Source: a bacterium (lineage in GTDB: Bacteria > Sysuimicrobiota > Sysuimicrobiia > Sysuimicrobiales > Kaftiobacteriaceae). Taken from it: 19,371 bases of DNA. Positions 5-19,371 of the stretch are shown here, one piece after another. The position numbers were made by a program, and so were the translations under genes. The notes below the pieces were generated by a model, which ran no database searches, had not been told where the DNA came from, and saw only the letters and a list, made by a program, of their open reading frames with translations. Positions within the stretch are counted from its first letter, which is position 1, and each line of letters starts with the position of its first letter. The stretch is taken from contig JBIOWP010000005.1 in the NCBI GenBank assembly GCA_044868695.1, positions 1 to 19,371 on the forward strand, read 5' to 3'.

Positions 5-1672
5 CTACCGTTCCCACCAGGCCTTTCCGATGACCAGCGAGTGGCCGGTCGGGACGTTCGTCACTGTCCCGCCGCCCTCCACGCTGATGTTTCCGATCAG
101 CTGCAGGGTGGACTGCGCCACGAGGCCGCCGTGAATGTTCACGGCGCCTGTACCCGCCTGCAGCGTGCCGTTGACAATGATGGTGCCCCAGTAGTCGAAC
201 GTCCCATTCACGATCAGGTTCCCGTTGACCACGAGGGTGCCGTGCCCGCCGATGTTGCCGTTGACCGTCCAGTCTCCGTTGAGGACGAAGACCTTCTGCT
301 CGGTCTGCGTGCAGTAGGCGGCCGTCATCTCGGGCTTCTTGCAGCCCATATGATCCGTGGGCGCCGGGGTGCCGTCAATCCTGTTGCAGGCCGTCGGGAG
401 GCTCGGGAGCGTCCCGATGCCGGTCTTCGAACAATCATAGTTGTTCGTGACCGAACTGGTTTCAGGAAACGGCGGGACCGCGCCGTACTCGGGATACCGC
501 TGCAGGTCCGGCTGGACCGTCGGGTCGGGGTCCGCGGCGTTCGCCTTCACGCAGATGCTGTCGATGCATGCCGCGGTGCCGAGCCCGTTCCCGCGCTTCA
601 CCGCTGTCATCTTCGCCTCATCAAACCGCCAGTAATTGTCAAACCATTCCTCAAACACAATGGTCTTGAACCAGCGGGTATTCGGCGGGTTCCCGCCCGG
701 GACGAAGGCCCCGTTCTCGTCGAGGAACGGAGGATTATCGGCCGGGCCTTGCGACACCCACTTGAATGGCAACCCGCAGGGGAAGAGGTCGGGGTCCAGC
801 TGTGAGGGCACCGTCCCCGACGGGTCGTCGGGGTCAAATCCGTACTGGTCGATGGGCGCGGCGAGCGTGACGTTGGTCTGTAGAATGGCACCGGTGGGGA
901 CGGTCGTGTTGTAGGGGGGGAGTACCGCGCATCCATTTGCCTCGGCGTTGGCCTGAAACGCGAGAATATCCTGTCCAGCCGCCGTCGTCTCACTCACTCC
1001 CAGCCGCGTACCGGGATACCAGTTGGCGACGTCGGGGTTGCCGGGGTTTGCCGTCGTGCATCCCAGGTGCGTGTAGCAGGGAGCCACCGCGGGACCGCTG
1101 CCCGGCGTCTTGCTGACCCGCCAGCCCGCGTAGGTGATGGTCTGCGGCGGCGCACAGGCGTTGGTCGGGTAGCTCTTGTATTGGATAAACGACCTCGCAT
1201 ACGCATCACCGCAGGTGATCGCGGCACTGCCGGACTCGCTGACGCTGGCCGCAAAAGTGATGTCCGGCGGGAACGCGATGATCTGCTGCAGCACCAGCGC
1301 CGTCAGCTTTCGCGTGGCCGCGCCGACATTGGATGCCGTCGCCGTGATCTCCAGGTAGGCGGAGTTCGAGCCGGTGAAGACCCGCGTGACCGTGACGTTG
1401 ACCCGAGAATCGAGTACGCTCGTAAACGGAACACTGAACGGCCGTCCCATCTCCACTCTCCGGATCGCCTCTTGGATCCCGGCCTGGGCGAGTTCCGATG
1501 CCCGGACCCCGTCCCGCTGCAAACTGGCGATAACGATCTCGTTGCCGGTCACCGACAGCATCGCCGTGATAAGAATGAACACCAGCACCACGAACAGCAG
1601 GACGGTGATCAGCGCCGCCCCGCGGTCGCGCGACCGGATCTGCTCAATCAGTCTTCGTGCGCGTGCAAACAT
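5..1672 (-). CDS. Large PilX/GspK-like minor (tip) pilin, ~555 aa, with a Cys-rich middle region and a C-terminal beta-solenoid-like repeat region
   Basis: Basic leader then G|AALITVLLFVVLVFILITAML, a class III signal lacking Glu5 as is typical of PilX/GspK, followed by the PilX-N-like ASELAQAGIQEA. Contains 12 Cys and C-terminal VNG repeats, and ends WWER. The ATG at 1672 follows GGTGAGG; the ORF track uses TTG at 1684. It is the last gene of a FimU-PilV-PilW-PilX-like run. Confidence 0.8.
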   Translation of the reverse strand: MFARARRLIEQIRSRDRGAALITVLLFVVLVFILITAMLSVTGNEIVIASLQRDGVRASELAQAGIQEAIRRVEMGRPFSVPFTSVLDSRVNVTVTRVFTGSNSAYLEITATASNVGAATRKLTALVLQQIIAFPPDITFAASVSESGSAAITCGDAYARSFIQYKSYPTNACAPPQTITYAGWRVSKTPGSGPAVAPCYTHLGCTTANPGNPDVANWYPGTRLGVSETTAAGQDILAFQANAEANGCAVLPPYNTTVPTGAILQTNVTLAAPIDQYGFDPDDPSGTVPSQLDPDLFPCGLPFKWVSQGPADNPPFLDENGAFVPGGNPPNTRWFKTIVFEEWFDNYWRFDEAKMTAVKRGNGLGTAACIDSICVKANAADPDPTVQPDLQRYPEYGAVPPFPETSSVTNNYDCSKTGIGTLPSLPTACNRIDGTPAPTDHMGCKKPEMTAAYCTQTEQKVFVLNGDWTVNGNIGGHGTLVVNGNLIVNGTFDYWGTIIVNGTLQAGTGAVNIHGGLVAQSTLQLIGNISVEGGGTVTNVPTGHSLVIGKAWWER

Positions 1673-1698
1673 CGTCCTCACCAACGGCTCTCTGAGTT

Positions 1699-1717
1699 CC
1701 TTGCCGGCGCGGCAAGG
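1699..1717 (-). other. Perfect 8-bp inverted repeat (hairpin) immediately after the pilW-like stop codon
   Basis: CCTTGCCG (1699-1706), 3-nt loop, CGGCAAGG (1710-1717). No U-tract follows on the minus strand, so it is not a canonical intrinsic terminator. Confidence 0.55.
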
Positions 1718-2437
1718 TCAGTTGCGCGTCATCGACTGCCCGGGCAGGAGAATCTCCTGGTCCGGAATCGCCCTGCCCTGCACGACCTCGGTACCCTTGG
1801 CCTTCAGGGTCACCGAGACGATCCCGCCGGAAACACCGACATCAAAGCTTTCAATCATCGTAGCGATGATATCTCCGCCGGTGAGCAACCCGAGGTTCAG
1901 CACGGTCGTCGGCTGGCTGAGGTCGCCCACGACCCGGCGGAGCTCATGCATCCCATCGGGCGTATCCACGACGTAGTATCCGACGTAGCGCTGCCAGATG
2001 GGCGTATACGTCCCCCGCGGGACAATCGGCTCCGGGCTGGTGTACGGCGGGGGCGTAATGTTGCCGCCCGCGAAGGTGTAGCAGCGCGCGTCGTACCCGA
2101 GGCCCGTCGTGAGGCGCGTGTAGAGGCAGAACTTGTTGTTGTCTTCATTCAACCGGGCCGACTTGAAGACAATCTGGCTGTGTCCCGGCGTCGTGTTGTC
2201 GTACACGACCTCCACGACGCTGGTTTCCCGGATCTCGCGCGTCACCCGCTCGGTGGCGACACGCGCGTTCTGCTGCACGTCCGCGGCCACCTCGGTCTTG
2301 CGCGAGCTGGTGCGGGCGCTGCTGAACACGGCGTCAATCATCAGCATGAACAGCGCGAACACGGCCAGCGAGACCAGGAGCTCGATGAGTGTGACGCCCC
2401 GCTGCGCGCGGTGGAGCCGTGCCAGAGGCAGGGTCAT
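1718..2437 (-). CDS. PilW/GspJ-like type IV minor pilin, 239 aa
   Basis: Prepilin motif QRG|VTLIELLVSLAVFALFMLMI with Glu5, then ADVQQNARVATERVTREIRE, a helix typical of PilW. Two Cys. ATGA overlap with the upstream pilin. Confidence 0.85.
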   Translation of the reverse strand: MTLPLARLHRAQRGVTLIELLVSLAVFALFMLMIDAVFSSARTSSRKTEVAADVQQNARVATERVTREIRETSVVEVVYDNTTPGHSQIVFKSARLNEDNNKFCLYTRLTTGLGYDARCYTFAGGNITPPPYTSPEPIVPRGTYTPIWQRYVGYYVVDTPDGMHELRRVVGDLSQPTTVLNLGLLTGGDIIATMIESFDVGVSGGIVSVTLKAKGTEVVQGRAIPDQEILLPGQSMTRN

Positions 2438-2976
2438 GGGAGGAACCGGTCCACCTGCAGGGTCCGGGTCACGTTCCGGTACCGCCAGGTCAGGACGGAG
2501 CGGATGCGCACGAGGTACTCTTGGGTGGTATCAGTGGTGCAGCCCACGCCCGGGGTCACACTGTACTTCACGAACTTGGGAGGGACGGCCGCGTCGAAAC
2601 ACGCATACCACCGCTCGATGGTCACATCCAGCCGGCGCCAGTCCAGCTGGTATGGCTGTGTCGGCGGCGTGGGCCAGCCGGTCAGCCCTGAGGACGCCAG
2701 GTTGGGCGTGGAGCAGTCGGGTCCCTCACAGTAGCTGCCCGCGACCAGCGCCGCGCTGACTTGGCCCGACGCATTTTCCTGGAAGGCCTGCAAGTACACC
2801 GCGCCGGCCGTCATGTCCCGGGCCGCCCGCGTCGTGAGGAATCCGGTGGGAAACCCTTCAAGGAAGCCGCCGGAGCCCGCGGCGCCCAGCACGCCCAGGG
2901 CGCCGATGATGACGACCGCGAAGATCGCCAGCGACACCAGGATCTCGATCAGGGTAAACCCCTGCTCGTGTCTCAT
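2434..2976 (-). CDS. PilV/GspI-like type IV minor pilin, 180 aa
   Basis: MRHEQG|FTLIEILVSLAIFAVVIIGALGVL. The ATG at 2976 overlaps the upstream TGA (ATGA). Four Cys. It is only the C-terminal part of the 603-aa ORF-track entry. Confidence 0.85.
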   Translation of the reverse strand: MRHEQGFTLIEILVSLAIFAVVIIGALGVLGAAGSGGFLEGFPTGFLTTRAARDMTAGAVYLQAFQENASGQVSAALVAGSYCEGPDCSTPNLASSGLTGWPTPPTQPYQLDWRRLDVTIERWYACFDAAVPPKFVKYSVTPGVGCTTDTTQEYLVRIRSVLTWRYRNVTRTLQVDRFLP

Positions 2977-3503
2977 AGCCGCGACACGCTCACTCGCCCC
3001 GTGGCCGACTCGACCTTGACCTCGACCTGCTCGACGCCGGACGACTTCACCTTCAGCCGCATGCGGCCGCTCGCGGTGGCATACCCCAGAGGCTTGAACG
3101 TCGCGCAGTCGTTGGCTGTGTCGGCCGGCGCAGTACACGCCGGAAAGTTGGTCGGGCCGTCCATGATCTGGACGTTGGAGGGCCACTCGGACTGCACGGT
3201 CCGGACCAGAGTGGTCGGCGTTCCCACCTTCCAGATCTTCAGTCCCGTCGACGTGCCTGACCCCGTCACCACGTCGAACTCGACCATGTAGTCCACGTTT
3301 TCGGCCACGCTCCGCGCCTGCGCCCGGCGCAATTCCGACATCACCAGCGTCGCCGCGCGCTGGAGGGAAAAGGCGTCGCGGGCCTTCTGCACGCCGAGCG
3401 CAAGGACGCCAAGGACCACCGCAATGGTCCCAATGACGACGATGAGCTCCAGCAGCGTGAAGCCCGCCTGGCCGTCTTTGTGGCGCACCGGTTTCCAGGA
3501 CAT
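2973..3503 (-). CDS. FimU/FimT/GspH-like type IV minor pilin, ~176 aa
   Basis: GQAG|FTLLELIVVIGTIAVVLGVLAL, then LMSELRRAQARS-type helix (LVMSELRRAQARSV), TFKPLG and C-terminal VESATGRV, all typical of GspH/FimT. The ATG at 3503 has AGGAG 5 nt upstream; an alternative in-frame ATG is at 3521. Confidence 0.85.
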   Translation of the reverse strand: MSWKPVRHKDGQAGFTLLELIVVIGTIAVVLGVLALGVQKARDAFSLQRAATLVMSELRRAQARSVAENVDYMVEFDVVTGSGTSTGLKIWKVGTPTTLVRTVQSEWPSNVQIMDGPTNFPACTAPADTANDCATFKPLGYATASGRMRLKVKSSGVEQVEVKVESATGRVSVSRL

Positions 3504-3548
3504 GAGGTCTCCTATGGTCATGCCCTCCCCGTTTGGGGCATAGACACC

Positions 3549-3564: not shown

Positions 3565-3605
3565 CGGCCTCCTTCTATTATGTTTCCACAAAACTTCCGG
3601 CGATG

Positions 3606-4364
3606 CTATGGGGAACCGAGGTACCAGCGGAGGATCGCGCCGGACGCGAAGAGCGCGAGTACACCGCCGACGGCCAGCGAGGGACCGAATGGGATCGGGT
3701 CTTTGCGCGAGCGCTTCTTTGCAGCGATGAGTAGCACCCCGGCGGCCGCCCCCAGCACGAATGCGACCAGCAGCGCCAACGCAATCGCGGGCCAGCTCAA
3801 GAACGCGCCCATCATCGCGGCCAGCTTGATATCCCCTCCGCCCATGCCGCCGCGGCTGGCCATCGCTACGATCAGGAAGAAGCCCCCGGCGGCGGCGGCC
3901 GCGATCACGGACGAGACGAGGACCCCCTGGGGAATCGCGAGGAGCAGCCCGACCACGAGCCCGGGGTAGGTGATCGCGTTCGGCACGATCTGATGGTCGA
4001 GATCGATGAAGAACACCGCGAGCAGCGCCAGGGAGAACACACTGCCCGCGACGAGCGCCGTCCACGCGCCCGACTGCGCGAAGCGCAGCCACAGCGCGGC
4101 CAGCAGGATCCCGGCGGCCGTCTCGACCGCGGGATAGCGCCAGCCGATCGGGGCCCGGCACACCCGGCACCGTCCACGGAGTATCAGGAAGCTGAGGAGC
4201 GGGATATTGTCGACCGGCCGGATGGCCGCTCCGCAGTGCGGGCACCGGGACGCCGGCCGTACGATCGAGAGCCCCCTAGGCAGACGGTAAATCACCACGT
4301 TCAGAAAACTGCCCAGGATGGTCCCGAGGACAAACACGACGGCCGTGGACGCGATCAGGTTCAT
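3606..4364 (-). CDS. pilD: Prepilin peptidase / N-methyltransferase (peptidase A24A), 252 aa
   Basis: GSFLNVVIYRLP; Zn-binding pairs CPHC and CRVC; catalytic Asp motifs FIDLDHQIVP and GMGGGDIKL; C-terminal IPFGPSL; multiple TM segments. Confidence 0.95.
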   Translation of the reverse strand: MNLIASTAVVFVLGTILGSFLNVVIYRLPRGLSIVRPASRCPHCGAAIRPVDNIPLLSFLILRGRCRVCRAPIGWRYPAVETAAGILLAALWLRFAQSGAWTALVAGSVFSLALLAVFFIDLDHQIVPNAITYPGLVVGLLLAIPQGVLVSSVIAAAAAGGFFLIVAMASRGGMGGGDIKLAAMMGAFLSWPAIALALLVAFVLGAAAGVLLIAAKKRSRKDPIPFGPSLAVGGVLALFASGAILRWYLGSP

Positions 4365-6451
4365 CGCCCGGTCACCCGCCGCACCACGTGGCGCAACTCC
4401 ACCAGGGCATGTTCAGACGCCAGGTCCATTTCCGGGTCACGCTGCCGGTGGCCGTAGCGCACTTCTTCGAACGTCCGTGTGATCAGCTCCGCGGCGGGAC
4501 GCACCGGCTCCGGCAGCCGTGCGGCAAACTCGCGGGGTGTCGTCGCCGGGCCGCGGAGAAATCCGCGACGGGCCAGAACCTTCAGCATGGCCTCGTAGTG
4601 GTCCTCACCGAATGATAGCCTGCGGCCACGGCGGTCTCGACGAGCCCGGAGCAGCCCCACGGCCACCACGACGGCGCCGGCCGCCAGCAGGAGGACCGGC
4701 GGTTCTGCCGGCCTCGCGTCCGAGAGCGGGCGGATCAGCCGCGCCGCCGCGGCCCCCACCCACGCGAGCGCGTCGCGAGCCAACCACTGCCCCGTGGATT
4801 CGCGGGCCAGAACGTCGGCGGACGCAAATCCGGGCGAGGGCTCAAACTCCACCCACCCCACCCCGGGCTGGAAGACTTCCACCCAGGCGTGCGCGTCGGA
4901 GTTGCGGACCTCGTAGTACCCTGTGAAGATGTTGTAGGTTCCGGTGGTGTAACCGGTCACCAGGCGCGCGGGCACGCCGGCGGCCCGCAACAGCACAGCC
5001 ATGGCGCTGGCAAAGATCTCACACGACCCCTGCCGCGTGACGAAGAGGAATTCGTCGACCGCATCGGCGCCCGCGGACAGGGGCGGGGCCTGCAGCGTAT
5101 ATGAGAATCCTGTCGCCAGGTAGCGCTGGATCGCCGCCGCCTTCTGGTACGGGCTCGGCCATGGGACCGTCAGCTCCCGCGCGAGCTCCTGCACCCGCGA
5201 TGGAATCGACGGCAGCGGCAGATAGCGGGCGCCGATCCCAGGCGGGACGTCTCCACGGTCCCGTTCCAGGAGTGCCGCCGTCGGCACCGGAACGCGGCTG
5301 ATCACGCTGTAGATCATTCCGGACTCCAGCGGCACCGGACTGCGCAGGCCCGCGTAACGGTCCACGGCGATCGTTCCGGTGGGAAAGAACACTTCGAACG
5401 GCCTGTACGCGGCAAAGATGACGTTCGGCTGCTTCGCTTCCACGTAGAACGTCTGGATCACCTGCTCGGATCCGGCGGGCCAGGGCTCGTCGGGTCCGAG
5501 CCGGGGCGCCAGGCGCGGCTGGTCGGACGCATATTCGTCCACGGCCCGATCGCTCATGCGCCAGCCGCGCTTCATATAAGTGTCAAAGGCCAGCCCCCGC
5601 CAGAACGCCGGCCGCGTGGACCGCACGCGCATGACCAGCGTGTCGTCCAGCGTCCCGCGCATCCGCAGGTCCACGAACGTAGAGAACCCGACGTAGCCCT
5701 GCGGGTTGAACACCGCGGTGGTGGGCTCCAGGTCTGCTCCCGGTTCCTCCGGATAGGCGGGGTTAACAATACGCCCGGCCAGCGAGGTGGTCCAGAGCAG
5801 GCGCGGCGACACCGGCGTCCACCGCACGCGCAGCCCGCCGCCGCGTGGAATGAGCGCGAACAGCAGCGCCGCCACCAGCAGCACCGCGCCACCGAGCCGC
5901 ACCCCCGGCCCGACCAGCTCCGGGATCGGCATTCCCGGACCCGCTTGCATCGCCACGAGCGCCAGACCGGCGGCCAGCGCGAAGGGAATCAAAAACAGCC
6001 CAAAGGCCGCGTCGCGCGCGTACACCGCGCCGACGCCCATGAGGACGATGGCGCTGGCCAGCGAGTACTTGAGGTCCTTGCGGGCCGGCAGGTCAAAACC
6101 GTGCAGGACCTGCAGCCACAGGAACAGCCGCACCAGCGGGATGCGGGGGTCGTAGGGGTTATTGACCAGCGCCGTGAAAAAGTCGCGCGCGACCGCCAGA
6201 ATCAGGATGGCAATCGCCGCCTTCAGCCACCAGTTGGCCGCGCGGCGGCGGACGTAGCTGACCACGTACCCCACCACGATGGCGATGGCCGCGCCGGCTG
6301 CCTGCACCGTAAACTCCTCTTGCACCGCAACCGAGGCCACCGCGACGAGCACCACGAAGAGCACGGCGGCCCGGGATGCGATCGAGTCGTCCGGGGCGGG
6401 CCGCGGAAATCGGCGGGCGATGCGTCCTATCGTGTCAGTGAGCCTAGGCAC
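4361..6451 (-). CDS. TgpA-like membrane transglutaminase-domain protein (DUF3488 TM region + transglutaminase core + DUF4129-like tail), 696 aa
   Basis: N-terminal multi-TM region; FWRGLAFDTY; core GSCEIFASAMAVLLRAAGVPARLVTGY ... DAHAWVEVF ... GWVEFEP; tail TPREFA ... FEEVRYG. GTG start preceded by GGAGGAGG. Overlaps the DUF58 gene by 25 nt. Confidence 0.9.
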   Translation of the reverse strand: MPRLTDTIGRIARRFPRPAPDDSIASRAAVLFVVLVAVASVAVQEEFTVQAAGAAIAIVVGYVVSYVRRRAANWWLKAAIAILILAVARDFFTALVNNPYDPRIPLVRLFLWLQVLHGFDLPARKDLKYSLASAIVLMGVGAVYARDAAFGLFLIPFALAAGLALVAMQAGPGMPIPELVGPGVRLGGAVLLVAALLFALIPRGGGLRVRWTPVSPRLLWTTSLAGRIVNPAYPEEPGADLEPTTAVFNPQGYVGFSTFVDLRMRGTLDDTLVMRVRSTRPAFWRGLAFDTYMKRGWRMSDRAVDEYASDQPRLAPRLGPDEPWPAGSEQVIQTFYVEAKQPNVIFAAYRPFEVFFPTGTIAVDRYAGLRSPVPLESGMIYSVISRVPVPTAALLERDRGDVPPGIGARYLPLPSIPSRVQELARELTVPWPSPYQKAAAIQRYLATGFSYTLQAPPLSAGADAVDEFLFVTRQGSCEIFASAMAVLLRAAGVPARLVTGYTTGTYNIFTGYYEVRNSDAHAWVEVFQPGVGWVEFEPSPGFASADVLARESTGQWLARDALAWVGAAAARLIRPLSDARPAEPPVLLLAAGAVVVAVGLLRARRDRRGRRLSFGEDHYEAMLKVLARRGFLRGPATTPREFAARLPEPVRPAAELITRTFEEVRYGHRQRDPEMDLASEHALVELRHVVRRVTGR

Positions 6452-7530
6452 GCGCCCACCTCCTCCCCCTGCCGCAGGATGGCAACGGGAATCTCCAACG
6501 CCCGGAGCAGCATCTCTCCCGCGTCATCCGTCAACACCGCGGCAATCGGAATCCCCCGCTGGGCCAGGGCCGCCACGGCATCGGCATCGGCCGTACAGAC
6601 GACAGCCGGCGTCCCATCCGGCACTCCCGTCGCATAGACGTCCGCCAGCGGGAGGACTCCGTCGGGCTGAACGCGGGCCAGCCAGTGCAGCGCCCCAGAC
6701 CACCCCACAGACGCGCGCTGGACCTGCGTGCCGCTAGCCGCGGCCAGCAGCACAGCGCGCCCCGACCGCGTGACGGTCTGCGCGATCGACGCGGCCGCCC
6801 GCACCAGATCTTCGAACCTGTCGCTGGAGCGCGTGTCGAGGAGCAGGGCAACGGGTTGATGGATCTCCCGCTCAAACTCCCGCACGACCAGCACGCCGCG
6901 GCGTGCGGTGCTGCGCCAGTGGACGTGGCGCAGGGCGTCTCCATCGCGGAAGTCCCGCACGCCGGCGACCTCTGATCCGTCCCGCCCGGGACGCGGCACC
7001 GGCGACGCCTCCGCCTCGGCGCGGCCCGGCACAGGGAAATCTGCCAGAACCCAGTAGCGGGGGAAAACCGTGAGGATCCCCGGCGCGGGAACGCGGCGGC
7101 TCGATGCAAACAGACCGGTGAGCCCAGAAGATCGCACGTCGAGGGCGTCGACACGGTGGACGCCGCGGCGCTGGGCCTCCGCCTCATAGGTGACGATCCC
7201 CGGCGCGCGCGCATCACAGGAGGCGATGACGGCGGTGTGCGGTGACAGACCGGGAACGGCATCGGTGATCCGGATGAAGTGGCGGCGGCCCCGGCGCGGC
7301 ATCACCCGCAGCCGGACCTGAAGACGGTCTCCTTCAAACGCCTCGGGGGACATGTCGCGTTCAATCACCAGACCCTGCGACCCGGCGCGCGCGGACAGCC
7401 AGCCGACCGCCAGTGCGGCCAGCAGCAGGGCGTCCACCGCATACACCCAGCCGGCCTGGAGGTTGACCGCCACGAATAGGAGGAGCGCGGCCAGCACGCC
7501 GGCGGCGATGCCGTCGCCGGTGGGTCTCAT
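6427..7530 (-). CDS. DUF58 domain membrane protein (MoxR partner), 367 aa
   Basis: Two N-terminal TM segments; signature EVAGVRDFRDGDALRHVHWRSTARRGVLVVREFE followed by LLLDTR; canonical position between MoxR and a transglutaminase. Confidence 0.9.
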   Translation of the reverse strand: MRPTGDGIAAGVLAALLLFVAVNLQAGWVYAVDALLLAALAVGWLSARAGSQGLVIERDMSPEAFEGDRLQVRLRVMPRRGRRHFIRITDAVPGLSPHTAVIASCDARAPGIVTYEAEAQRRGVHRVDALDVRSSGLTGLFASSRRVPAPGILTVFPRYWVLADFPVPGRAEAEASPVPRPGRDGSEVAGVRDFRDGDALRHVHWRSTARRGVLVVREFEREIHQPVALLLDTRSSDRFEDLVRAAASIAQTVTRSGRAVLLAAASGTQVQRASVGWSGALHWLARVQPDGVLPLADVYATGVPDGTPAVVCTADADAVAALAQRGIPIAAVLTDDAGEMLLRALEIPVAILRQGEEVGACLGSLTR

Positions 7531-8492
7531 CGCGAGAGCACGGGAACAGGGATGCTGGACAGCAGTCCGTCGATCACGGCATCGGTCGACACCGTCCGGG
7601 ACCGCACCACCAGCCGGTGCGCCAGGACGTGCGGAACGATCCGTTTGATGTCGTCGGGGACGACGAACTCCCGCCCATCGCGCAGGGCCATCGCCTGCGC
7701 CAGACGGACGAGGCCGACCGATGCCCTCGGACTCGCGCCCATGGCCACTTCCGGGTGCACCCGCGTGGCGGCGACAATCTCTGCCGCATATGCCATCAGT
7801 GACCGGTCCACCCGCACCGCCCGAACCTGCAGCTGCCAGCGCAGGACATCGCCCGGCGACACGACCGGGTGGAGGGCATCCAGCGGGTGGGACAGCTGCT
7901 GGCGGGCGATGACCTCAACCTCGTCCTCTAAGGCGGGGTAGCCCAGGGACACCGACACCAGGAAGCGGTCCAGCTGGCCTTCAGGCAGCGGGTAGGTACC
8001 GTGATGTTCCACCGGGTTCAGCGTGGCGATCAGGACGAACGGCTGCGGGAGCGGGTAGGCGATGCCCTCAACGCTCACCTGCCCTTCCCCCATCGCCTCG
8101 AGGAACGCCGCCTGCGTGCGCGGGGTGGCGCGGTTGAGTTCGTCGGCCAGCACAATGTGCGCGAACAACGGTCCGGGCACGAAGCGCAGCGTGCCGCGCC
8201 CGGCGTCGTAGACCATGCCGCCCGTGATATCCGAGGGCAGCAGGTCCGGAGTGGCCTGGACCCGTTTGAACGTCCCGCCGATCGAGCGGGCGAGTGCCCG
8301 CGCCAGGATCGTCTTGCCGACACCGGGCACGTCCTGCAGCAGCAGGTGACCGCCGGCCAGCAGCACCGCCACGGCCAGGTCCAGGGCGCTCCGCTTGCCC
8401 ACGACGACGCGCTCGAGGTTTGTGACCAGTTCCTCAGCGCCGCGGGCCGCCTGCGCTATCGAGGACGGGGCGCCCTGCCCGGAGAGGCTCAT
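7527..8492 (-). CDS. moxR: MoxR-family AAA+ ATPase, 321 aa
   Basis: Walker A DVPGVGKT, TPDLLPSDITG, Walker B VLADELNRA, GTYPLPEGQLDRF, GASPRA, PDDIK. Confidence 0.95.
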   Translation of the reverse strand: MSLSGQGAPSSIAQAARGAEELVTNLERVVVGKRSALDLAVAVLLAGGHLLLQDVPGVGKTILARALARSIGGTFKRVQATPDLLPSDITGGMVYDAGRGTLRFVPGPLFAHIVLADELNRATPRTQAAFLEAMGEGQVSVEGIAYPLPQPFVLIATLNPVEHHGTYPLPEGQLDRFLVSVSLGYPALEDEVEVIARQQLSHPLDALHPVVSPGDVLRWQLQVRAVRVDRSLMAYAAEIVAATRVHPEVAMGASPRASVGLVRLAQAMALRDGREFVVPDDIKRIVPHVLAHRLVVRSRTVSTDAVIDGLLSSIPVPVLSR

Positions 8493-9710: not shown

Positions 9711-11123
9711 TCAGTAGGCTCCGCGTCCCGCAATGACCGATGGCAGCGTCCGCAGCAGGATCTTGAGGTCGAGCCCGACCGACCAGTGATCAATATAGTA
9801 CATGTCGAGGCTCACGCGATGCGCGTAATCCGGCTCGTGATGGCGCAGCACCTGCCACATGCCGGTCAGACCGGGCCGCACGCACAACAGTCTCCGCTCC
9901 CACGGGCCGTATTTGCGCAGCTCCGCTTCGACGATCGGCCGGGGCCCGACCAGGCTCATCTCCCCCTTGAGCACGTTGAGCAGCTGGGGAAGTTCGTCGA
10001 GGCTTGTCCGCCGCAGCCACCGGCCCATCCGGGTGACCCTGGGATCGTCCACGAGTTTGTACGAAGAGGTAAACCGGTCCCGCAGGCGCGCATCACGGGT
10101 CAGGTGTTCCTCTGCCCGTTGCACCATGGTGCGAAACTTCCACGCGTAGAATGGCACACCGGCCTTACCGATTCGCTTCTGACGATAGAAGACCGGACCA
10201 GGACTGTCCAGCACCACCAGGACCGCGACGATGATGAACAGCGGCAGCGTCACGATCATCCCGATCAGCGCACCCATCAGGTCCGTGGCATCCTTCAGCC
10301 GCCGGCCCCACCCCACGAGCGGGCTGCCGCGCAGCGTGAGCAGCGGGAGTCGGTCCACCAGCTCTACATCCGCGCCCGTGGCGATGAGCGTGTACAGATC
10401 GGGTACGATGGCGAACGGCACGCCGGCCTCCTGGCAGACGGCGGCCACGTGCATCGTCGTCTCCCGCGCCTCGGCCGGAAGAGCGATGATCACACGGTGC
10501 GCGCCGGTGCGGCGGACCGCAGCCAGCACCTCCTCAGGCCGTCCCACCACGGGGAGGTCCTCACAGGATTCCGCGGGGGACGCATCGACGAACGCGATCG
10601 GGCGCTGGCCCAACTCCGGGCGCTCGCGCAGCGCGCGCACAAGTTCCCTGGCTTCGGTGCCGGTGCCGACCATCAAGACGTGGCTGACGTCGATCCCCCG
10701 GGCGCGGACCGCCCGGTGAGCCGCGCGGAGCGCTCCGCGCGCGCCGAGCACCAGAACGATGCTGATGGCCCAGGCAAAGACGATCCATAGGCGGGAGTAG
10801 GAGAACTGCCGGTAGAAGAACGACGCGGCCAGCAGCGCCATCGTGCCCACCGACACGGCGCTGGTCACCCGCAACGCTTCGTCAAAAAATCCGGAGAGCC
10901 GGTCCCGGTACAAACCGTAGGCCGCGAAGGTCGCGATCCACCCGGCGAGCAGGCCGGGCAGGATCGCGAGATACGGACGGGTGGGTGGAGCGTCGGATGC
11001 CGGCACCACCTCCCAGTAGAAGCGCAGGAGGTAGGCGAGCACGAATGCGGCGGCGATCGTGCACGCATCGAGCACGATCGCCAGCAGCACACGAAGTTGT
11101 CGGCGGCGACCCTCGGAGAGCAT
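9711..11123 (-). CDS. Priming polyprenyl-phosphate glycosylphosphotransferase (WcaJ/WbaP-like), 470 aa
   Basis: Four N-terminal TM segments, Rossmann-like VLMVGTG region, one further TM, then the Bac_transf domain: DSPGPVFYRQ, KFRTM, DDPRVT...RTSLDELPQLLNVLKGEMSLVGPRP. Confidence 0.95.
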   Translation of the reverse strand: MLSEGRRRQLRVLLAIVLDACTIAAAFVLAYLLRFYWEVVPASDAPPTRPYLAILPGLLAGWIATFAAYGLYRDRLSGFFDEALRVTSAVSVGTMALLAASFFYRQFSYSRLWIVFAWAISIVLVLGARGALRAAHRAVRARGIDVSHVLMVGTGTEARELVRALRERPELGQRPIAFVDASPAESCEDLPVVGRPEEVLAAVRRTGAHRVIIALPAEARETTMHVAAVCQEAGVPFAIVPDLYTLIATGADVELVDRLPLLTLRGSPLVGWGRRLKDATDLMGALIGMIVTLPLFIIVAVLVVLDSPGPVFYRQKRIGKAGVPFYAWKFRTMVQRAEEHLTRDARLRDRFTSSYKLVDDPRVTRMGRWLRRTSLDELPQLLNVLKGEMSLVGPRPIVEAELRKYGPWERRLLCVRPGLTGMWQVLRHHEPDYAHRVSLDMYYIDHWSVGLDLKILLRTLPSVIAGRGAY

Positions 11124-11190
11124 GGGTTGTCTACCAGACCCATGCCCGACCGCTCTGATGGGTAGTCGGCAGGGAATGACGAGGTGGCGG

Positions 11191-12306
11191 TTAGGACGCC
11201 CGCGTCCTGCGGGCCGCGAGGGCCGCGCGATAGACGGCGACCGTTCCCTCGCCCATCCGGTTCAGGCCGAACGCGCGCTCCACCCGAAGGCGGCCCTGCC
11301 TCCCGAGTGACGCCGCCGCGGGCCGGTCGGCGAGCAAGGTGAGCACCGCCCGCGCCAGCGCGTCCGCGTCACCGGCCGGCGCGGTCACTCCCGTTTCGCC
11401 ATCCAGGACGACCTCGGCAATACTGGGAAGCCGTGTGGCCACGACGGGGCGTGAGGCCGCCATCGCCTCCAGGACGATCAACGGCAATCCCTCCCACCGT
11501 GAGGGCACGACCACGACATCCATCGAACGCAGCAGCGACGGCACGTCGTCCCTGAACCCGGTCAGCACACAGCGGCCGGCCAGGCCCGCGCGGCGAACGG
11601 TGTCCGCCACAGGCTGCCGGAGCGGGCCATCGCCCACGATGAGAAAGTGCGCGTCCGGGATCGCGTCCGATACGAGGCGCGCCATGCGGACGAACGTCAG
11701 AGGATCTTTTTGCGGCACCAGGCGCGCGACCATTCCCACGACCGGCGTCGTCGGAGACAATCCCAGGTCGGTCCGGCAGTCGCGTGCGGCGTCAAACGGC
11801 GTGACGTCGATGCCGTTCGGTACGACAGTACACTGACCCACCGCAATCCTATGCCGGGCCGCGTCGGCCAGGTCGGCGTGGGTCAGACAGATCACCCGGT
11901 CGACATGCGCGCACGTAAACCTCTCCATCCGTGCGAACAGCCACCGGGCCGCCGCCGGCCCGGTGCGATGAAAGGAGAAGGCGTGCGCGGTGTAGATCGC
12001 CGGCCGGATGCCGGCCGCCTTTGCGGCGACCGCGCCGAACAGCCCGGCCCGGCTGCCGTGCAGGTGGAGCACGTCGGGGCCGACCGACCGGAAGAGCCGC
12101 GTGAGCGGCGCCAGCCGGGCGGGACCCAGCGCGCCGACCACGGTGACCGGCACCCCGAGCTGCCGGAGACGCTCGCTTGCGGGACCGTCTCTGCCGGATA
12201 CAACCGCGCTAGTGAATCCCGCGCGCGTCAGCTCGTGCGCCAGCAGGCGGAGATGTTCACCCCCGCCTCCGACCTCCACCGTATTGATGACGTGCAGCAC
12301 CCTCAT
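11191..12306 (-). CDS. Glycosyltransferase family 4 (GT-B), 371 aa
   Basis: MRVLHVINTVEVGGG, YTAH, VVPNGID, VARLVPQKDP, PSRWEGLPLIVLEAMA (EX7E). The ATG at 12306 overlaps the upstream TGA. Confidence 0.92.
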   Translation of the reverse strand: MRVLHVINTVEVGGGGEHLRLLAHELTRAGFTSAVVSGRDGPASERLRQLGVPVTVVGALGPARLAPLTRLFRSVGPDVLHLHGSRAGLFGAVAAKAAGIRPAIYTAHAFSFHRTGPAAARWLFARMERFTCAHVDRVICLTHADLADAARHRIAVGQCTVVPNGIDVTPFDAARDCRTDLGLSPTTPVVGMVARLVPQKDPLTFVRMARLVSDAIPDAHFLIVGDGPLRQPVADTVRRAGLAGRCVLTGFRDDVPSLLRSMDVVVVPSRWEGLPLIVLEAMAASRPVVATRLPSIAEVVLDGETGVTAPAGDADALARAVLTLLADRPAAASLGRQGRLRVERAFGLNRMGEGTVAVYRAALAARRTRAS

Positions 12307-13250
12307 CGGCCCGGCGAGCCGGTCTGCCAGCCGCGTTCGAGGACCTGCCCCAGCCGGTCGCGCCGCAGGAAGATGCGGACGAGGCGCACCAATCCGCGCC
12401 ACGTCCCCCGTACCGTCGCGGGATCCCAGACTTTTCCGAGCAGGGTCACGAACCCCAGGTTCAACCAGAGATAGCAGATCCGGTTGAACGGCGTCTTCAC
12501 GACGCACCGGGAGTAGAACCGCAGCCAGCTGAGGATCCGCAGCTCGCAGAACCGTTCACGACTTAGGCGGCTGGCCGGCGCTTCCTTATGAATCAGTCTC
12601 GCCCCCGGCACCCACCACAGCTCGAACCGCGTGGACACCAACACGGTGAAGTCGCGGTCCTCGCCAAAGCTGTACCCGGAGTACCCCTCATCGAACCGGA
12701 AGGACGCGAACACCTCGCGCCGGAGCGCCAGATCTCCGCCGTGCAGGCGCATCGCGCGCCGCGGCTGGGTCCCCGGGTAGAGGTGAAAGGCCAGCGTGTC
12801 GCGCTCGACGCCGAACGGCCCGCGGTAAAACAGCCAGGACCGGATCCGCTGCAGCCGGGACAGGCTGTCCGGAAGATTGACGATCAGCCCCCCGGCCCCC
12901 CCGATGCGTCGGTCGTGGTCGGCTTCGAAGACACGCATGATCTCGCGCAGATACCCGGGAGACAGCTCCACGTCGTCGTCGAGAAACAACACCACGTCGC
13001 CGTGGGAGAGATCAACCGCGCGGTTACGGGCGTGCGTCAACCCCGCCAGCGCAGGCGCGTGCTCGTAGCGCAACCGGATGCCGCAGGGCTCCACGACGCC
13101 GGCCACAGCCGGCCCAGAGGGATGCGGACTCTGGTCGACGATCACGATCTCCTGCGGCCGCCTGTCCTGCGTCACGGCCGACCGCAGGCAGGCCAGCAGT
13201 TCGGAAGGACGGTTCTTCGTTGGGATGAGCACCGAGAGGCTCAGCATCAC
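12303..13250 (-). CDS. Glycosyltransferase family 2 (GT-A), ~315 aa
   Basis: LSVLIPTKNR, EIVIVDQS, ARNRAV, DxD motif VLFLDDD, FDEGY...GEDRDF. The start is GTG 13250 or ATG 13247. Confidence 0.92.
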   Translation of the reverse strand: MMLSLSVLIPTKNRPSELLACLRSAVTQDRRPQEIVIVDQSPHPSGPAVAGVVEPCGIRLRYEHAPALAGLTHARNRAVDLSHGDVVLFLDDDVELSPGYLREIMRVFEADHDRRIGGAGGLIVNLPDSLSRLQRIRSWLFYRGPFGVERDTLAFHLYPGTQPRRAMRLHGGDLALRREVFASFRFDEGYSGYSFGEDRDFTVLVSTRFELWWVPGARLIHKEAPASRLSRERFCELRILSWLRFYSRCVVKTPFNRICYLWLNLGFVTLLGKVWDPATVRGTWRGLVRLVRIFLRRDRLGQVLERGWQTGSPGR

Positions 13251-14779
13251 GGTTGGCTCCGCCGCCGGAGTACCATCCAGAGCTTCCGCACCTGGACGCG
13301 GTCCTCATCTGGCAAGAACCCGGCCGCGGCCGCAGCGTAGGCACCCAGGACCGCCGCCGTGGTGCCGGCCAGACCAATGGGCCAGGCCGCCGTTCCTCCC
13401 CACGCCCACCGGGCCGCGACGACGCCGGCACCCGCACCGACGAGACCCGCGGCGAGGATGCGCAGCGTGGCCCGGGTGAACGGGACGATCCTCAGGCGCC
13501 TCTGCGCCTGAACAACCATGGCGAGATTGAGACCGGCGATCACCAGCGCGGCGGCGCCGGCCGCCCCCGTGGGGCCATAGCGGGGCACGAGGACGGCGCC
13601 CAGCGCGGCGAGCAGCGCCACCGCCGCCGCGTAGTGCCAGATGACGGTCCTGGCATGCCCGGTGAGCAACAGCAGGTATCCGACGGATCCGGTTCCGGCG
13701 TTGACCATCTGGCCGAGGGCCAGCAGCGTGAGCGCGGGGACGGCGACCTGATACTCGACTCCGAACGCGCGCAGCAACCCGGGCCCCGCAAAGATGAGCA
13801 GCAGACAGACCGGGATGCTCGCCAGGAGCGTCCACCGCGCGGCGCGTTGAAAACTGTCGCGCAGTACGTCACGCTCGGCGCGAGCCCACAGAACGCTGAT
13901 CGCCGGAGCGTAGACCGTATTCACCGCGGCGAGAATGGCCGCGACCAGAAATGCCATGCGTTCAGCGGCCGCGTACAAGCCAAGGGCACTCGCCGTCGAC
14001 TGCCGGCCGAGCTGCCAGACGGGCAGCGATTCGTGCACGCTTTGCAGGATGGCGAGCCCGAGCAACGGCGTCATCAGCACTACCAAATCCCGATCGAGCC
14101 GCCACGTGGGCCGGAGCCATGCGGTCCCGTACGATTCGACGCGCGACACCGCAACGCCGGCGATCCAGGCCGCAGCCGCCGCCGCCCCCGTGAACAGCCA
14201 CGCCACGGTCACCGGGGAACGCATCCCCCACGCCAGCGCGGCAACCAGGGACAGCGTGAACAGCGCCGGCCGGATAATTTGGCCGGGGATGATGGCCGAC
14301 GTGAACGCAAACGCCGCGCGCGAAGCCGCCCCCACCGCCGCCAGCAACACGAGGAACGGCAGTGAGAGCGCCATGGCCGCCAGGAGCCCGCCAGCCCCGT
14401 GATCCCCGAGCGCCGCGGCCAGCGGCGTTCGCCAGATGATGATCGCGATGGCCAGCACCCCCGCCACCGCCGTTGCCGGCCACGCGGCGCCGCCCAGCGT
14501 GACCGCCGCCTGCCCTTCGCGAGTGTCTCGCTTCGGGATGAGGGTCAGCAGCGCGTTGTGCAGCCCACCGGACGCCACCGCGGTTGCCACGGTCACGACG
14601 GACAAGCCGAGCCGGAACAGTCCGAATCCGGATATCCCCAGCAGGCGGGCCGCCATGAGCGCGCTCATCAGGCTCATCGCCGCGGCCCACAGCAGCCCGA
14701 ACAGCGCCAGCGCGGCCGCTCCCGCCATGGTCGGCCCGGCCGGCATCCGGATCGCCGGATCATAGTCGCGCACGGTCAT
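13247..14779 (-). CDS. Wzx-type oligosaccharide flippase (polysaccharide biosynthesis protein, MOP superfamily), ~510 aa
   Basis: Roughly 12-14 hydrophobic segments; ARLLG...FGLF, LGLYAAAER, FGVEY, LVPRYGPTGAA, which are typical of Wzx/RfbX. The ATG at 14779 overlaps the sulfotransferase TGA. Confidence 0.88.
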   Translation of the reverse strand: MTVRDYDPAIRMPAGPTMAGAAALALFGLLWAAAMSLMSALMAARLLGISGFGLFRLGLSVVTVATAVASGGLHNALLTLIPKRDTREGQAAVTLGGAAWPATAVAGVLAIAIIIWRTPLAAALGDHGAGGLLAAMALSLPFLVLLAAVGAASRAAFAFTSAIIPGQIIRPALFTLSLVAALAWGMRSPVTVAWLFTGAAAAAAWIAGVAVSRVESYGTAWLRPTWRLDRDLVVLMTPLLGLAILQSVHESLPVWQLGRQSTASALGLYAAAERMAFLVAAILAAVNTVYAPAISVLWARAERDVLRDSFQRAARWTLLASIPVCLLLIFAGPGLLRAFGVEYQVAVPALTLLALGQMVNAGTGSVGYLLLLTGHARTVIWHYAAAVALLAALGAVLVPRYGPTGAAGAAALVIAGLNLAMVVQAQRRLRIVPFTRATLRILAAGLVGAGAGVVAARWAWGGTAAWPIGLAGTTAAVLGAYAAAAAGFLPDEDRVQVRKLWMVLRRRSQP

Positions 14780-15714
14780 CGCCATGGGTAGCGGTATCGC
14801 AGGAGCAAGGGCCAGGTGAGAAACGTAACCATCCCGCGATGGGCGGCGGGCATCGTGCGGCGCCACTCGTCGTCAACGCGGACGTCGAGCGATCCGCGCT
14901 CGAAGCGCATGGGGTTGCCCGCGACGGTGTGATTGGTCTGCAGGCGCACCGCCCGTCCGTCGATGAAATCCAGCGCCGCGGGTCCGTCGCCCACGTCCCG
15001 CAGGACCGCAGCCAGCGCCTCTCTGGGTCGCTCGGCCAGGTCCTCATACCGGAGCACGGCCGCCCGGCTCGACGCGGCGCGCAGCGCGACGGTCAGCAGG
15101 TTCCACGACACCCACAGGCGCGCGCTGGCCCATGGCGCATACTGCAGCATATATTCGGTCTGCCAGTGGATCTCAGGCCGCTGCCTGCGGCGCCGGTAGG
15201 AAAACGCCACGGCCCGGCTGTCCCGGACGAGGTGCACGACCCGGAGATCAATGGAGGGGATCGCCCTGAGCAGGAATCCGTAGGCCGGGGACTTGGAAGA
15301 ATCCGCAACGATCGCGCACCCGGAAACCTCTGCAATGGCGCGGTACACCGCGGTGAGCGCCTGTCCGTAAGATGCCACGCGGCCGCGGTAGCTCCCGGGC
15401 ATCGCGCCGGAGACCAAATATGGAAGATACCGCGTCCGCAGGACGCTGCGCTGGAGATGGCGCATCTGGGGCACGTTAACCTGGTCCATGCCCCCAAACG
15501 CGCGGGCCATGACCTCCCGCCAGAAGGGACACTCGCGAAATCGGGACCCACAGCCGCACAGCTGATTGTCCCCCATGCCGCGGTCCCAGAGATATTCAAG
15601 CTCCCCGGAGGCGAAGATCCCGGGCACCTGCCCGAGGAGCAGGTCGAGCAGCGTACTGCCCGAGCGCGGGGCCCCGCCGACGTAGATGACCCGGACATCG
15701 CGACTCGCACTCAT
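14776..15714 (-). CDS. PAPS-dependent sulfotransferase, 312 aa
   Basis: 5'-PSB loop GGAPRSGSTLL, DSSK, 3'-PB HLVRDSRAVAFS, LRYEDL. The ATG at 15714 overlaps the upstream TGA; the ORF-track extension to 15987 is inside the upstream gene. Confidence 0.9.
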   Translation of the reverse strand: MSASRDVRVIYVGGAPRSGSTLLDLLLGQVPGIFASGELEYLWDRGMGDNQLCGCGSRFRECPFWREVMARAFGGMDQVNVPQMRHLQRSVLRTRYLPYLVSGAMPGSYRGRVASYGQALTAVYRAIAEVSGCAIVADSSKSPAYGFLLRAIPSIDLRVVHLVRDSRAVAFSYRRRRQRPEIHWQTEYMLQYAPWASARLWVSWNLLTVALRAASSRAAVLRYEDLAERPREALAAVLRDVGDGPAALDFIDGRAVRLQTNHTVAGNPMRFERGSLDVRVDDEWRRTMPAAHRGMVTFLTWPLLLRYRYPWR

Positions 15715-17786: not shown

Positions 17787-17898
17787 CACGTATTCATCTT
17801 GCCCGAAGGCGGAATCGATAGGCACCGCACGCCGGCGGGTAGAGGAATCCCGGCCACGCATCGCCTACAAGTGACAAGAGGGACTGGGGGTCTGTAGG

Positions 17899-18615
17899 AT
17901 GAGCCGGATGTGCTCACAGGTCCTTGACGAAGTTCACCGGTCGATCCTTGGCCTGGTGCGGCAGATCGCGTCGTCGGACGGGATCACCTCACTGCTGGAT
18001 GTCGGCTGCTGGGACGGCGGCACCACCCTTGAATACGCCCGGGCCGCGGGGGGAGCGCGCGCCTACGGCGTGGAGGTGTTCGCAGACCCCGCGTCACGGG
18101 CGACCGCGCGCGGCGTGTCGGTGGCCGTGATGGATCTCGAACGGGACGTGTTCCCCTGGTCCGACCAGGCGATGGATCTGGTCGTGTGCAACCAGGTCTT
18201 CGAGCACCTGAAGAACGTGTGGCTGCCGATGTCGGAGATCGCACGCGTCCTCCGCGTCGGCGGCCACCTACTGTTCTCGGTCCCCAACCTCGCGAGTCTG
18301 CACAACCGGGTCCTGCTGGCCGCCGGAGTGCAGCCGACATCCATCCGCACGTTCGGCCCCCATGTGCGCGGGTTCACGCTCGGCCAGGCGCGAGGACTCC
18401 TCTGCGCCGGCGGGGTGTTCCGGATCCGCCGAACGGCCGCCGCCGGCTTCTATCCATTCCCGGCACGCTGGGCGCGGCCGCTCGCCGCGCTGTTCCCGGG
18501 TGCCGCCCACACCTCGCTCCTGCTGGCGCAGAAGAAGGAGCACCGGTCGGAATGGCCGTGGACCACGTATGCCCGCGTTCCCCAGGCTACGGCGTGGACG
18601 CAGGAATCGGCGTAG
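17899..18615 (+). CDS. Class I SAM-dependent methyltransferase, ~238 aa
   Basis: Motif I LLDVGCWDG, YGVE, DLVVCNQVFEHL, RVLRVGGHLLFSVPN. It is the only credible + strand gene. Confidence 0.88.
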   Translation: MSRMCSQVLDEVHRSILGLVRQIASSDGITSLLDVGCWDGGTTLEYARAAGGARAYGVEVFADPASRATARGVSVAVMDLERDVFPWSDQAMDLVVCNQVFEHLKNVWLPMSEIARVLRVGGHLLFSVPNLASLHNRVLLAAGVQPTSIRTFGPHVRGFTLGQARGLLCAGGVFRIRRTAAAGFYPFPARWARPLAALFPGAAHTSLLLAQKKEHRSEWPWTTYARVPQATAWTQESA

Positions 18616-19371
18616 CCGCCGGCTTCTGGACTGCTTCCCATCCACTGGCGGCACCGGCCAGGAGCCACACGAGCGGCGCCAGCGCGACGACGCTGAATGA
18701 AAACTGGACCTGCGTGAGATACGCGGTCACGGCGGCGAGCCATCCCGCCGCGAGCAGCTGCGACTCACCGGCCGCCCGGCGACGCAGCCGTGAGGCGCTC
18801 GAGACGATCAGGACCCACACGGCCGCATAGACGGCTGCCCCGGGGACGCCGATCGAGACCGCCATCTGCAGGAGATCGTTGTGCGCCTTATCGACGACGA
18901 TTGGCCGGACCCCGAACACGCTGACGAGAGATGGCCGGTCGTACGGGAACACCTCCCGCAGCGTTTCGATCCCCCATCCCAGCAGCGGCCTCGCGGGAAT
19001 CAGATCGAGGGTCCGATCCCAGATGTACAGCCGCTGGGCCAGGGATCCCGATCCTGTCTCCACCGACGCCGACACACGCGCTCCAACCAGCATGGGCGAT
19101 CCGACCACGGCAACCAGCAGGGTGATGGCCACGACGGCGGCAGCGACCATGCCGGCCGCCAGCGCCCACTGGCGGCGCCAGACGTCGCGACCGGCGGCGA
19201 GACCGAGCACGGCCAGGCCCGCCACGGCGGCCAGCCAGGCCCCCCGGGTCAGGGTCAGAGCCGCGTCGACGACCGCCAGGCACGACATGAGCAGCCACCC
19301 AAATCGGCGCACGCCCTGACTCCCTGCGGCGAGGACCAGCAGCAGCGGGATCATGAACGCCAGGTACCCGC
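18587..19371 (-). CDS. O-antigen ligase family (Wzy_C) membrane protein, 5'-truncated by the window edge
   Basis: The frame stays open to the window end (..GYLAFMIPLL); LTLTRGAWLA, QRLYIW...RPLLGWG, DKAHNDLLQMAVSIG. No TPR tail. Confidence 0.85.
   Translation of the reverse strand, partial: GYLAFMIPLLLVLAAGSQGVRRFGWLLMSCLAVVDAALTLTRGAWLAAVAGLAVLGLAAGRDVWRRQWALAAGMVAAAVVAITLLVAVVGSPMLVGARVSASVETGSGSLAQRLYIWDRTLDLIPARPLLGWGIETLREVFPYDRPSLVSVFGVRPIVVDKAHNDLLQMAVSIGVPGAAVYAAVWVLIVSSASRLRRRAAGESQLLAAGWLAAVTAYLTQVQFSFSVVALAPLVWLLAGAASGWEAVQKPAATPIPASTP

Follow-up and report, generated by a model that had tools for sequence, protein, structure and literature searches.

A probable pilin-glycosylation cassette and a MoxR-DUF58-TgpA triad within a type IVa pilus cluster of Ca. 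Sysuimicrobiota

Transferases that glycosylate type IV pilins have been found encoded next to their substrates. In Pseudomonas aeruginosa, the genes for TfpO (a Wzy_C protein) and TfpW (a GT-C protein with tetratricopeptide repeats, TPR) lie directly downstream of pilA (PMC9829042; bioRxiv 10.1101/2020.04.19.049825), and for pglL homologues linkage to pilins is reported in 21/31. A different body of work concerns TgpA of the same species, which has transglutaminase activity in vitro and is co-transcribed with two upstream genes (PMC3507681). Genes of both kinds occur together in the stretch considered here (the window), which is the complete 19,371-nucleotide contig C5 (JBIOWP010000005.1) of a Kaftiobacteriaceae genome, G000; its family is coded f1 among families f1-f7. 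The original prediction, made from the sequence, saw a stand-alone locus in which a glycan module, a MoxR-DUF58-TgpA triad and a PilD-pilin module jointly mature pilins or other surface proteins. Instead, the window forms the central portion of a complete type IVa pilus cluster; its glycan genes probably glycosylate pilins, and the genomic case for the triad acting on pili is no stronger than background synteny.

The placement comes from the other contigs of G000 and from its relatives. On contig C145 are pilB, pilT and pilC, an unknown gene on the opposite strand, two genes for major pilins, one TPR gene and the 5' portion of a second ligase gene; C115 ends in pilB, and C141 opens with pilM, pilN, pilO and pilQ, followed by pepP, efp and nusB. 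Window positions 19144-19371 overlap C145 1-228 over 228 nt at 96.5% identity (72/75 residues), which suggests that strain variation at the second ligase gene broke the assembly there. The join of C5 to C141 is inferred from relatives: in G010 and G012 the cluster is unbroken, in the same order as that pieced together for G000. The window therefore has pilB-pilT-pilC-pilA-pilA-TPR upstream and pilMNOQ downstream, and PilB, PilT, PilC, PilMNO, PilQ, PilD and the major and minor pilins are all found, on four contigs in G000. From these contigs and the unbroken order it follows that the four pilins of the window, correctly counted in the original prediction, are the minor set; the major ones lie upstream on C145, and what was taken for a three-module locus is one section of an ordinary complete cluster. 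In f1, f4 and f5 the pilus genes also keep their housekeeping flanks (pepP or efp, nusB, ispA, pyrG).

Genes were called from a listing of open reading frames (ORFs) together with family scans; start calls are approximate. The interval 5-19371 holds 17 genes:

5..1684, minus: PilX/GspK-type large minor pilin, 559 amino acids (aa), likely the tip subunit; GspK model below cut-off, PilX_N on 10-13% of nearest-cluster members
1718..2437, minus: PilW-like minor pilin (N_methyl, PF07963)
2434..2976, minus: PilV-like minor pilin (N_methyl)
2973..3521, minus: FimU/GspH-like minor pilin (N_methyl; GspH model below cut-off)
3606..4364, minus: PilD prepilin peptidase (A24_N_bact and Peptidase_A24), the sole match in the genome
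4361..6451, minus: TgpA-type membrane transglutaminase-like protein (TgpA_N, Transglut_core, DUF4129; Cys477, His521, Glu537; match to TgpA 6G49, E 1.6e-35)
6427..7530, minus: DUF58 protein (family scan), two membrane helices predicted at the N-terminus
7527..8492, minus: MoxR AAA+ ATPase (AAA_3), Walker A and B intact
8489..9688, minus: GT4 glycosyltransferase, conserved in the family at 61-74% identity, likely adding an inner sugar
9711..11123, minus: WcaJ/WbaP-type initiating phosphoglycosyltransferase (TIGR03025 above cut-off), family-conserved at 67-79% identity
11191..12306, minus: GT4 glycosyltransferase of the variable cassette (family scan)
12303..13250, minus: GT2 glycosyltransferase of the variable cassette (family scan)
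13247..14785, minus: Wzx-type flippase (PF13440); relatives have other flippases here
14776..15714, minus: sulfotransferase (PF13469), no predicted membrane helix
15711..17825, minus: Wzy_C ligase-fold protein with a C-terminal TPR domain, candidate protein O-oligosaccharyltransferase (WaaL 7TPG, TM-score 0.62 on target); start at 17861, 17825 or further in
17899..18615, plus: class I S-adenosylmethionine-dependent methyltransferase (family scan), in the same place in G001 and G011
18587..19371, minus: second Wzy_C protein, 3' part (423-491 aa in relatives); 5' part on C145

The co-oriented run of 15 genes that had been predicted is there, from 5 to about 17825-17861 on the minus strand, each gene an open frame of the named family. 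Beyond it, the predicted interval also takes in the opposite-strand methyltransferase and the 5'-truncated second Wzy_C gene; co-orientation is interrupted once, because the methyltransferase sits between the two Wzy_C genes. The ATGA overlaps at 8489-8492 (GT4/moxR) and 4361-4364 (TgpA/pilD), to which the prediction gave weight as module junctions, are present, and both junctions are spanned by contigs of DNA run X3, which shares the study code but is not marked as a possible source. They are also ordinary: 8/14 junctions of the run are 4-nt overlaps, against 225/1235 co-oriented neighbour pairs in all fetched loci, and TgpA-pilD spacing in relatives ranges from -4 to 55 nt. Counts of promoter-like sites (4, against 1.2 +/- 1.2 in shuffles) and terminator-like sites (10, against 8.1 +/- 2.9) are uninformative. 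The tight packing of the run fits an operon, in which the two module junctions are not distinctive.

Transferase position carries the case for the glycan genes. Major-pilin loci were picked by the position of pilC or TgpA; 29 were examined, two of them from G000, and 3 at contig edges were left unscored. In every one of the 26 scorable loci, across four families, the major pilin has a Wzy_C or PMT_2-type GT-C gene at most two genes away. The transferase type switches between lineages on the PilC tree: PMT_2 genes occupy the pilin-adjacent place in f3, f4, f5 and G001, where the window has Wzy_C. On C145 the second ligase lies within two genes of the major pilins, with one TPR gene between, and in G036 pilin-transferase pairs recur as units. 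The ligase Arg and His motifs are retained in 8/8 rows. The genome's lpxC and lpxB genes are on C29, apart from the pilus cluster, so the pilus-cluster ligases are not in a lipopolysaccharide locus; KdtA was not found in G000, a genome 95% complete.

Several observations weigh against this reading. Protein transferases, WaaL ligases and Wzy polymerases, by published accounts, cannot be told apart by Wzy_C sequence; PglL-specific Pfam models, including PglL_A (PF15864), matched neither ligase, the matches being to Wzy_C and TPR (E 0.001, 1e-4); and G000 does have LpxC and LpxB. The major pilins of G000 end in Pro, not Ser/Thr, and in G017 the TPR-fused ligase lies outside the pilus cluster. The 26/26 count comes from kin genomes, without a formal null. 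For the ligase's N-terminal portion, a single-sequence search of the PDB gave no matches; the TPR-fused protein as modelled has WaaL as its nearest solved membrane fold. Taken together, the link between glycan genes and pilus is supported, and pilin O-glycosylation is, judging from gene position and family, the probable job of these genes. To that extent the predicted glycosylation of pilins by the upstream genes stands as likely.

The pilin ends themselves vary with the transferase. Where a Wzy_C gene is adjacent, the C-terminus is Pro in 14/14 loci, mostly as Ser/Thr-Pro; where a GT-C gene alone is adjacent, it is Phe or Tyr in 10/12; the exceptions are Pro with GT-C in G036 and G048, and Phe-ending pilins with a Wzy_C gene deeper in the cassette in G039 and G049. 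Because the PilC tree gives just two or three independent changes, the pairing of Pro ends with Wzy_C is a lead only. The terminal Ser/Thr rule of TfpO and TfpM is not followed here. Trimming of the terminal Pro by TgpA, which would expose Ser/Thr, was considered and rejected: G072 and G080 combine Pro-ending pilins and Wzy_C without a TgpA match, and f5 genomes have TgpA yet Phe-ending pilins.

A second pilus-like cluster of G000, on C153 (L126, L127), holds pilT, two pilB genes, pilC, a pilin, a Wzy_C gene, four minor pilins and pilMNO; its pilin ends in Thr-Pro with the Wzy_C gene directly after, and no secretin or triad was seen in the stretch.

The glycan genes divide into a conserved core and an exchangeable part. 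Within f1 (neighbour counts use loci from 14/19 relatives with a TgpA match, plus L004), the order wcaJ-GT4-moxR-DUF58-TgpA-pilD recurs, with GT4 immediately before moxR in 13/13 loci and pilD immediately after TgpA in 14/14; adjacency by chance in a compact genome, against which the original prediction had asked for a comparison, is not the explanation in this genome. The interval from ligase to wcaJ, by contrast with this core, has genome-specific content in the 11 genomes listed: other flippases, GT4s, GT2s, methyltransferases, aminotransferases and inverted dTDP-sugar genes. The TPR-fused ligase was matched in 17/21 f1 relatives and 0/72 others (E 1e-40; best 12 candidates per genome scored), on the same contig as pilC, wcaJ or TgpA in 14 and not placeable in 2. 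The sulfotransferase is a strain-level addition: it is in the pilus cluster only in G000 (1/94 genomes), and matches in 3/93 other genomes, at 31-35% identity, are on contigs apart from their pilus clusters; sulfation as a core step is thereby ruled out. No Wzz or Wzc was found among the pilus-cluster proteins scanned. Wzz matches in G000 are confined to C53, the site of its Wzc-WcaJ-Wzy_C polymer locus, and, below cut-off, C103. Contig C76 (L242:14349-16673, minus) holds a 775-aa frame in which Wzy_C is fused to a lipid-A-disaccharide-synthase-related domain (TIGR03492 above cut-off); its neighbours are a flippase, phosphodiesterase-family genes, ATP sulfurylase/adenosine phosphosulfate kinase genes for phosphoadenosine phosphosulfate (PAPS), and a PMT-family gene.

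The triad has the gene order and domains (AAA_3; DUF58; TgpA_N with Transglut_core) of known triads. We take PA2875 and PA2874 to be the MoxR and DUF58 members of the P. aeruginosa set. Cys477 and His521 of TgpA are invariant in 28/28 aligned rows; at the third catalytic place, 28 of 32 rows have Glu and the other 4 Asp, with two genomes entering the count twice. The closest named relatives are ANGP1 and Ca. Calidihabitans tengchongensis, at 61-72% identity, the latter a member of Ca. Sysuimicrobiota, the CSP1-3 phylum (PMC11604079). TgpA_N was matched in 17/21 f1, 29/34 f5 and 1/1 f6 genomes, in 2/23 of f3 and in 0/12 of f4; pilM was matched in 19/23 f3 and 9/12 f4 genomes, so that these families mostly keep pili and lack TgpA_N, and f3 pilus clusters carry glycan genes without the triad. 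In f5 the upstream neighbours are GT2-GtrA genes (a glycosyltransferase immediately before moxR in 9/14 loci), and a PMT-family, protein O-mannosyltransferase-like gene follows TgpA in place of pilD, directly in 14/16 loci. In the one f6 locus pilD directly follows TgpA, as in f1.

The counts that speak for a pilus role of the triad are these. Orthologous TgpA is in 48 genomes, a count that omits two matches in f3 and a second copy in G011 as non-orthologous or weak; the triad is in the pilus cluster in 22/22 scorable genomes (pilC or pilM on the same contig, <=35 kb), and TgpA lies between pilC and pilM in 10/10. It stayed there although the surrounding pilD, minor pilins and glycan system were rearranged or replaced. 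The same retention was gauged against a control from the f5 genome G041: twenty stretches of 20 kb, spaced apart, with 370 ORFs, 162 of which have a clear G000 ortholog. In this one genome pair (G041/G000), true operons included, gene pairs up to 1 kb apart stayed within 10 kb in 118/128 cases, those at 1-3 kb in 127/150 and those at 3-6 kb in 110/141; consecutive pairs that span a predicted operon boundary were still close together in 14/19, with 10 unscorable. Because control pairs thus stay near in 74-92% overall between f1 and f5, retention of the triad in the pilus cluster lies within background. The prediction that it belongs to pilin maturation is not supported here: linkage does not exceed background synteny, and the triad is mostly missing from f3 and f4, which keep their pili.

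Some rearrangements of the cluster and its neighbours deserve record. In f1, pilC and pilA are separated by a conserved opposite-strand gene with no Pfam match (L238:2816-3397, plus, and relatives), which in f5 is found just ahead of pilD. In genus g2 (L046; L067, which is G013; L045, which is G001) pilM directly follows pilD, and in G013 the fimU-pilVWX block is relocated behind pilQ. A MazE-like and PIN toxin-antitoxin pair sits between pilD and fimU in L049, L050, L052-L055 and L059 (genera g3, g4, g7); in f5 clusters, toxin-antitoxin and other small genes are scattered around the triad, and in f5 genus g22 (L089, L091) two inverted pilT-like genes lie between wcaJ and GT2-GtrA. This bacterial cluster also appears, at 48-79% identity, on L032, a contig titled as a Methanobacteriota archaeon and probably a binning contaminant. 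The PilX-like pilin of the window has the N-terminus G|AAL, without Glu5; its structure model (predicted local distance difference test score, pLDDT, 56) is too weak for assigning a function, the best match being Thermus ComZ (E 6e-5, TM 0.15). With that faint likeness and with ComEC present in G000, DNA uptake by this pilus is possible.

Outside the phylum, TgpA was sought with the protein of G082:C133, a query picked for its pilin context; from 578 confirmed metagenome loci, 80 were retained. Pilins lie within 3 kb downstream in 4/51 loci with at least 1.5 kb of downstream sequence available, and in one shorter locus; relatives at 78-79% identity are without pilins. Annotated records from Rubrobacter, Paenibacillus and Halogeometricum have pilins beside TgpA in 0/3, and glycan-gene queries matched none of the 80 loci. 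A general TgpA-pilin linkage is ruled out by these counts, and the comparison with distant genomes that the prediction proposed shows the triad seldom adjoining pilins elsewhere. The pilin-flanked cases belong to a separate TgpA lineage, directly before pilE-fimT-pilVWX-pilY1 in L106, L128, L131, L132 and L148. In L106, the query contig itself, a proteobacterial-type triad directly precedes pilE-fimT-pilV-pilW-pilX-pilY1, on what is possibly a contaminant contig (G082 is 6% contaminated); L128, L131, L132, L148 and L175 likewise have a proteobacterial-type triad directly or nearly upstream of that set, and the arrangement is patchy among close relatives.

One way to assemble these observations is as follows. 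WcaJ would prime undecaprenyl phosphate; the conserved GT4, then the variable GT4 and GT2, would extend the chain; a cytoplasmic sulfotransferase (fed by the PAPS genes on C76), and perhaps the methyltransferase, would decorate it; Wzx would flip it across the membrane; and the Wzy_C enzymes, one working with the neighbouring TPR gene product and the other with its fused TPR domain, would transfer it to Ser/Thr residues, internal or near-terminal, of pilins that PilD has processed. Such a variable sugar coat may adjust adhesion or conceal the pilus from phages; shielding against phages by pilus glycans is known. By analogy, the MoxR ATPase would act through membrane-tethered DUF58 on TgpA, whose outward-facing Cys-His-Glu domain would cross-link, anchor or clip secreted envelope proteins; the triad would be a general envelope module, probably co-transcribed with the pilus genes and dispensable for the pilus. 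That it is a passenger is suggested by background synteny, by the f3 and f4 pili and f3 cassettes that lack it, and by the 4/51 outside loci. The combination, a short lipid-linked chain moved onto pilins by the Wzy_C pair with the triad as passenger, is our preferred account, at close to even confidence.

A second perspective is that of the original prediction: one pathway, in which PilD cleaves, the cassette glycosylates, and TgpA, with MoxR-DUF58 as chaperone, cross-links, anchors or trims pilins. The triad's persistence in 22/22 clusters despite rearrangement, pilD directly after TgpA in all f1 loci and the f6 locus, the invariant Cys and His, and the separate lineage before pilins in five loci favour it. 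So do two reports from elsewhere: archaeal transglutaminase-family genes are described as having a strong linkage with type IV pilus loci, with pilin processing or degradation proposed (PMC4858521), and in an actinobacterial MoxR/vWA cluster, deleting the transglutaminase is described as releasing a filamentous surface protein (PMC13622651). Such a pathway is nonetheless unlikely, though it keeps some weight, given that retention lies within background, that f3 builds pili and cassettes without a triad, that f5 places an O-mannosyltransferase-like gene where pilD should be, that the few pilin-flanked outside loci group round a context-picked query while the annotated records from three other taxa lack pilins, and that pilin C-terminal type does not track TgpA presence. 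A fuller version, a pilus-finishing line with a new TPR-guided Wzy_C class, a sulfated strain-specific glycan, a Ser/Thr-Pro signal and a triad that cross-links or trims the subunits, is quite improbable; if true, it would provide the first natural substrate for the widespread MoxR-DUF58-TgpA triad.

Two further accounts move the glycan or the triad elsewhere. The glycan might not be for pilins at all, being an O-antigen-like unit for lipid A or a pilus-associated polysaccharide as in cyanobacterial hps loci, which are described as joining glycosyltransferases and pseudopilins in polysaccharide secretion (PMC12475490). Wzy_C spans WaaL, Wzy and protein transferases, WaaL is the closest solved membrane fold, LpxC and LpxB are present, and the GT2 has its best NCBIfam score with HpsN, far below cut-off. 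Yet the transferases track the major pilins and change family at that spot, the pilus cluster has no chain-length regulator, better polymer and lipid A candidates are on C53 and C76, and KdtA was not found in the 95% complete genome; the idea is unlikely. Alternatively, the triad might serve the glycosylation side, TgpA modifying the glycan or glycoproteins after transfer or joining a general O-glycosylation system. A glycosyltransferase does directly precede moxR in f1 (13/13) and often in f5, where a PMT-family gene follows TgpA, and Bordetella WbmE, a periplasmic transglutaminase-like protein, is reported to modify O-antigen after its assembly. However, the glycosylation genes that flank the triad in f1 are not related to those in f5, f3 cassettes do without the triad, and none of the 80 outside loci had a glycan-gene match, so this is very unlikely. 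The account of a pilin-directed cassette with a passenger triad thus remains the preferred one.

What follows for pilus biology is an abundant uncultured phylum with a full type IVa pilus and an exchangeable, probable pilin-glycosylation cassette, in which the TfpO-versus-TfpW switch of P. aeruginosa strains is repeated across a phylum. Pro-ending pilins point to transferases with another acceptor rule, which is of use in glycoengineering. Action of the triad on pili, if real, would solve the question of TgpA's substrate, and the cluster gives a short list of candidates. A literature search, conducted mostly outside subscription literature, found no characterised bacterial locus in which the triad occurs with both a glycan cassette and pilins, nor any sulfated pilin glycan from bacteria; in two published CSP1-3 accounts, no 'type IV' or pilus wording was found.

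Among described systems, those for the triad and the minor pilins are the more distant. The P. aeruginosa unit PA2875-PA2874-tgpA (PMC3507681; PDB 6G49) is likewise a three-gene unit ended by tgpA, with the same TgpA layout and with Cys and His aligned; here the third catalytic residue is mostly Glu, and the set is a single copy within a pilus cluster. Archaeal type IV pilus loci share the linked transglutaminase-family gene and its proposed part in pilin processing or degradation; they belong to another domain of life, and the available part of the account (PMC4858521) does not mention MoxR-DUF58 or glycan genes alongside. Cyanobacterial hps loci (PMC12475490) resemble the window in clustering glycosyltransferases with minor pilins, the hps product being a secreted polysaccharide. 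Thermus PilA4 and PilA5 are described as O-glycosylated on internal serines (PMC7203116), and the likeness of the large minor pilin to ComZ (PDB 6QVI) is weak; in the sources available, the triad is not reported with either the hps or the Thermus system.

The pilin-linked transferases come closest. In P. aeruginosa pilA-tfpO/tfpW and in Moraxellaceae pilin-tfpM (PMC9829042; bioRxiv 10.1101/2020.04.19.049825), as here, a transferase of lipid-linked glycan is encoded beside the major pilin; the transferase changes between the Wzy_C and GT-C types from lineage to lineage, as here; and TfpW is described with a periplasmic TPR domain, as one ligase here has. The differences are the two tandem Wzy_C genes with a TPR gene, the presence of WcaJ, glycosyltransferases and Wzx all inside the pilus cluster where TfpO borrows an O-antigen unit, and pilins that end in Pro rather than the Ser/Thr of TfpO and TfpM. 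PglL and PglS (PMC3643930) share the Wzy_C domain, a pilin-linked gene and, presumably, an internal acceptor site; the ligases here have no PglL-specific Pfam match, and a TPR tail instead. The locus probably works like a pilin-glycosylation locus and, by the features compared, stands outside the TfpO/TfpM, PglL and TfpW groups.

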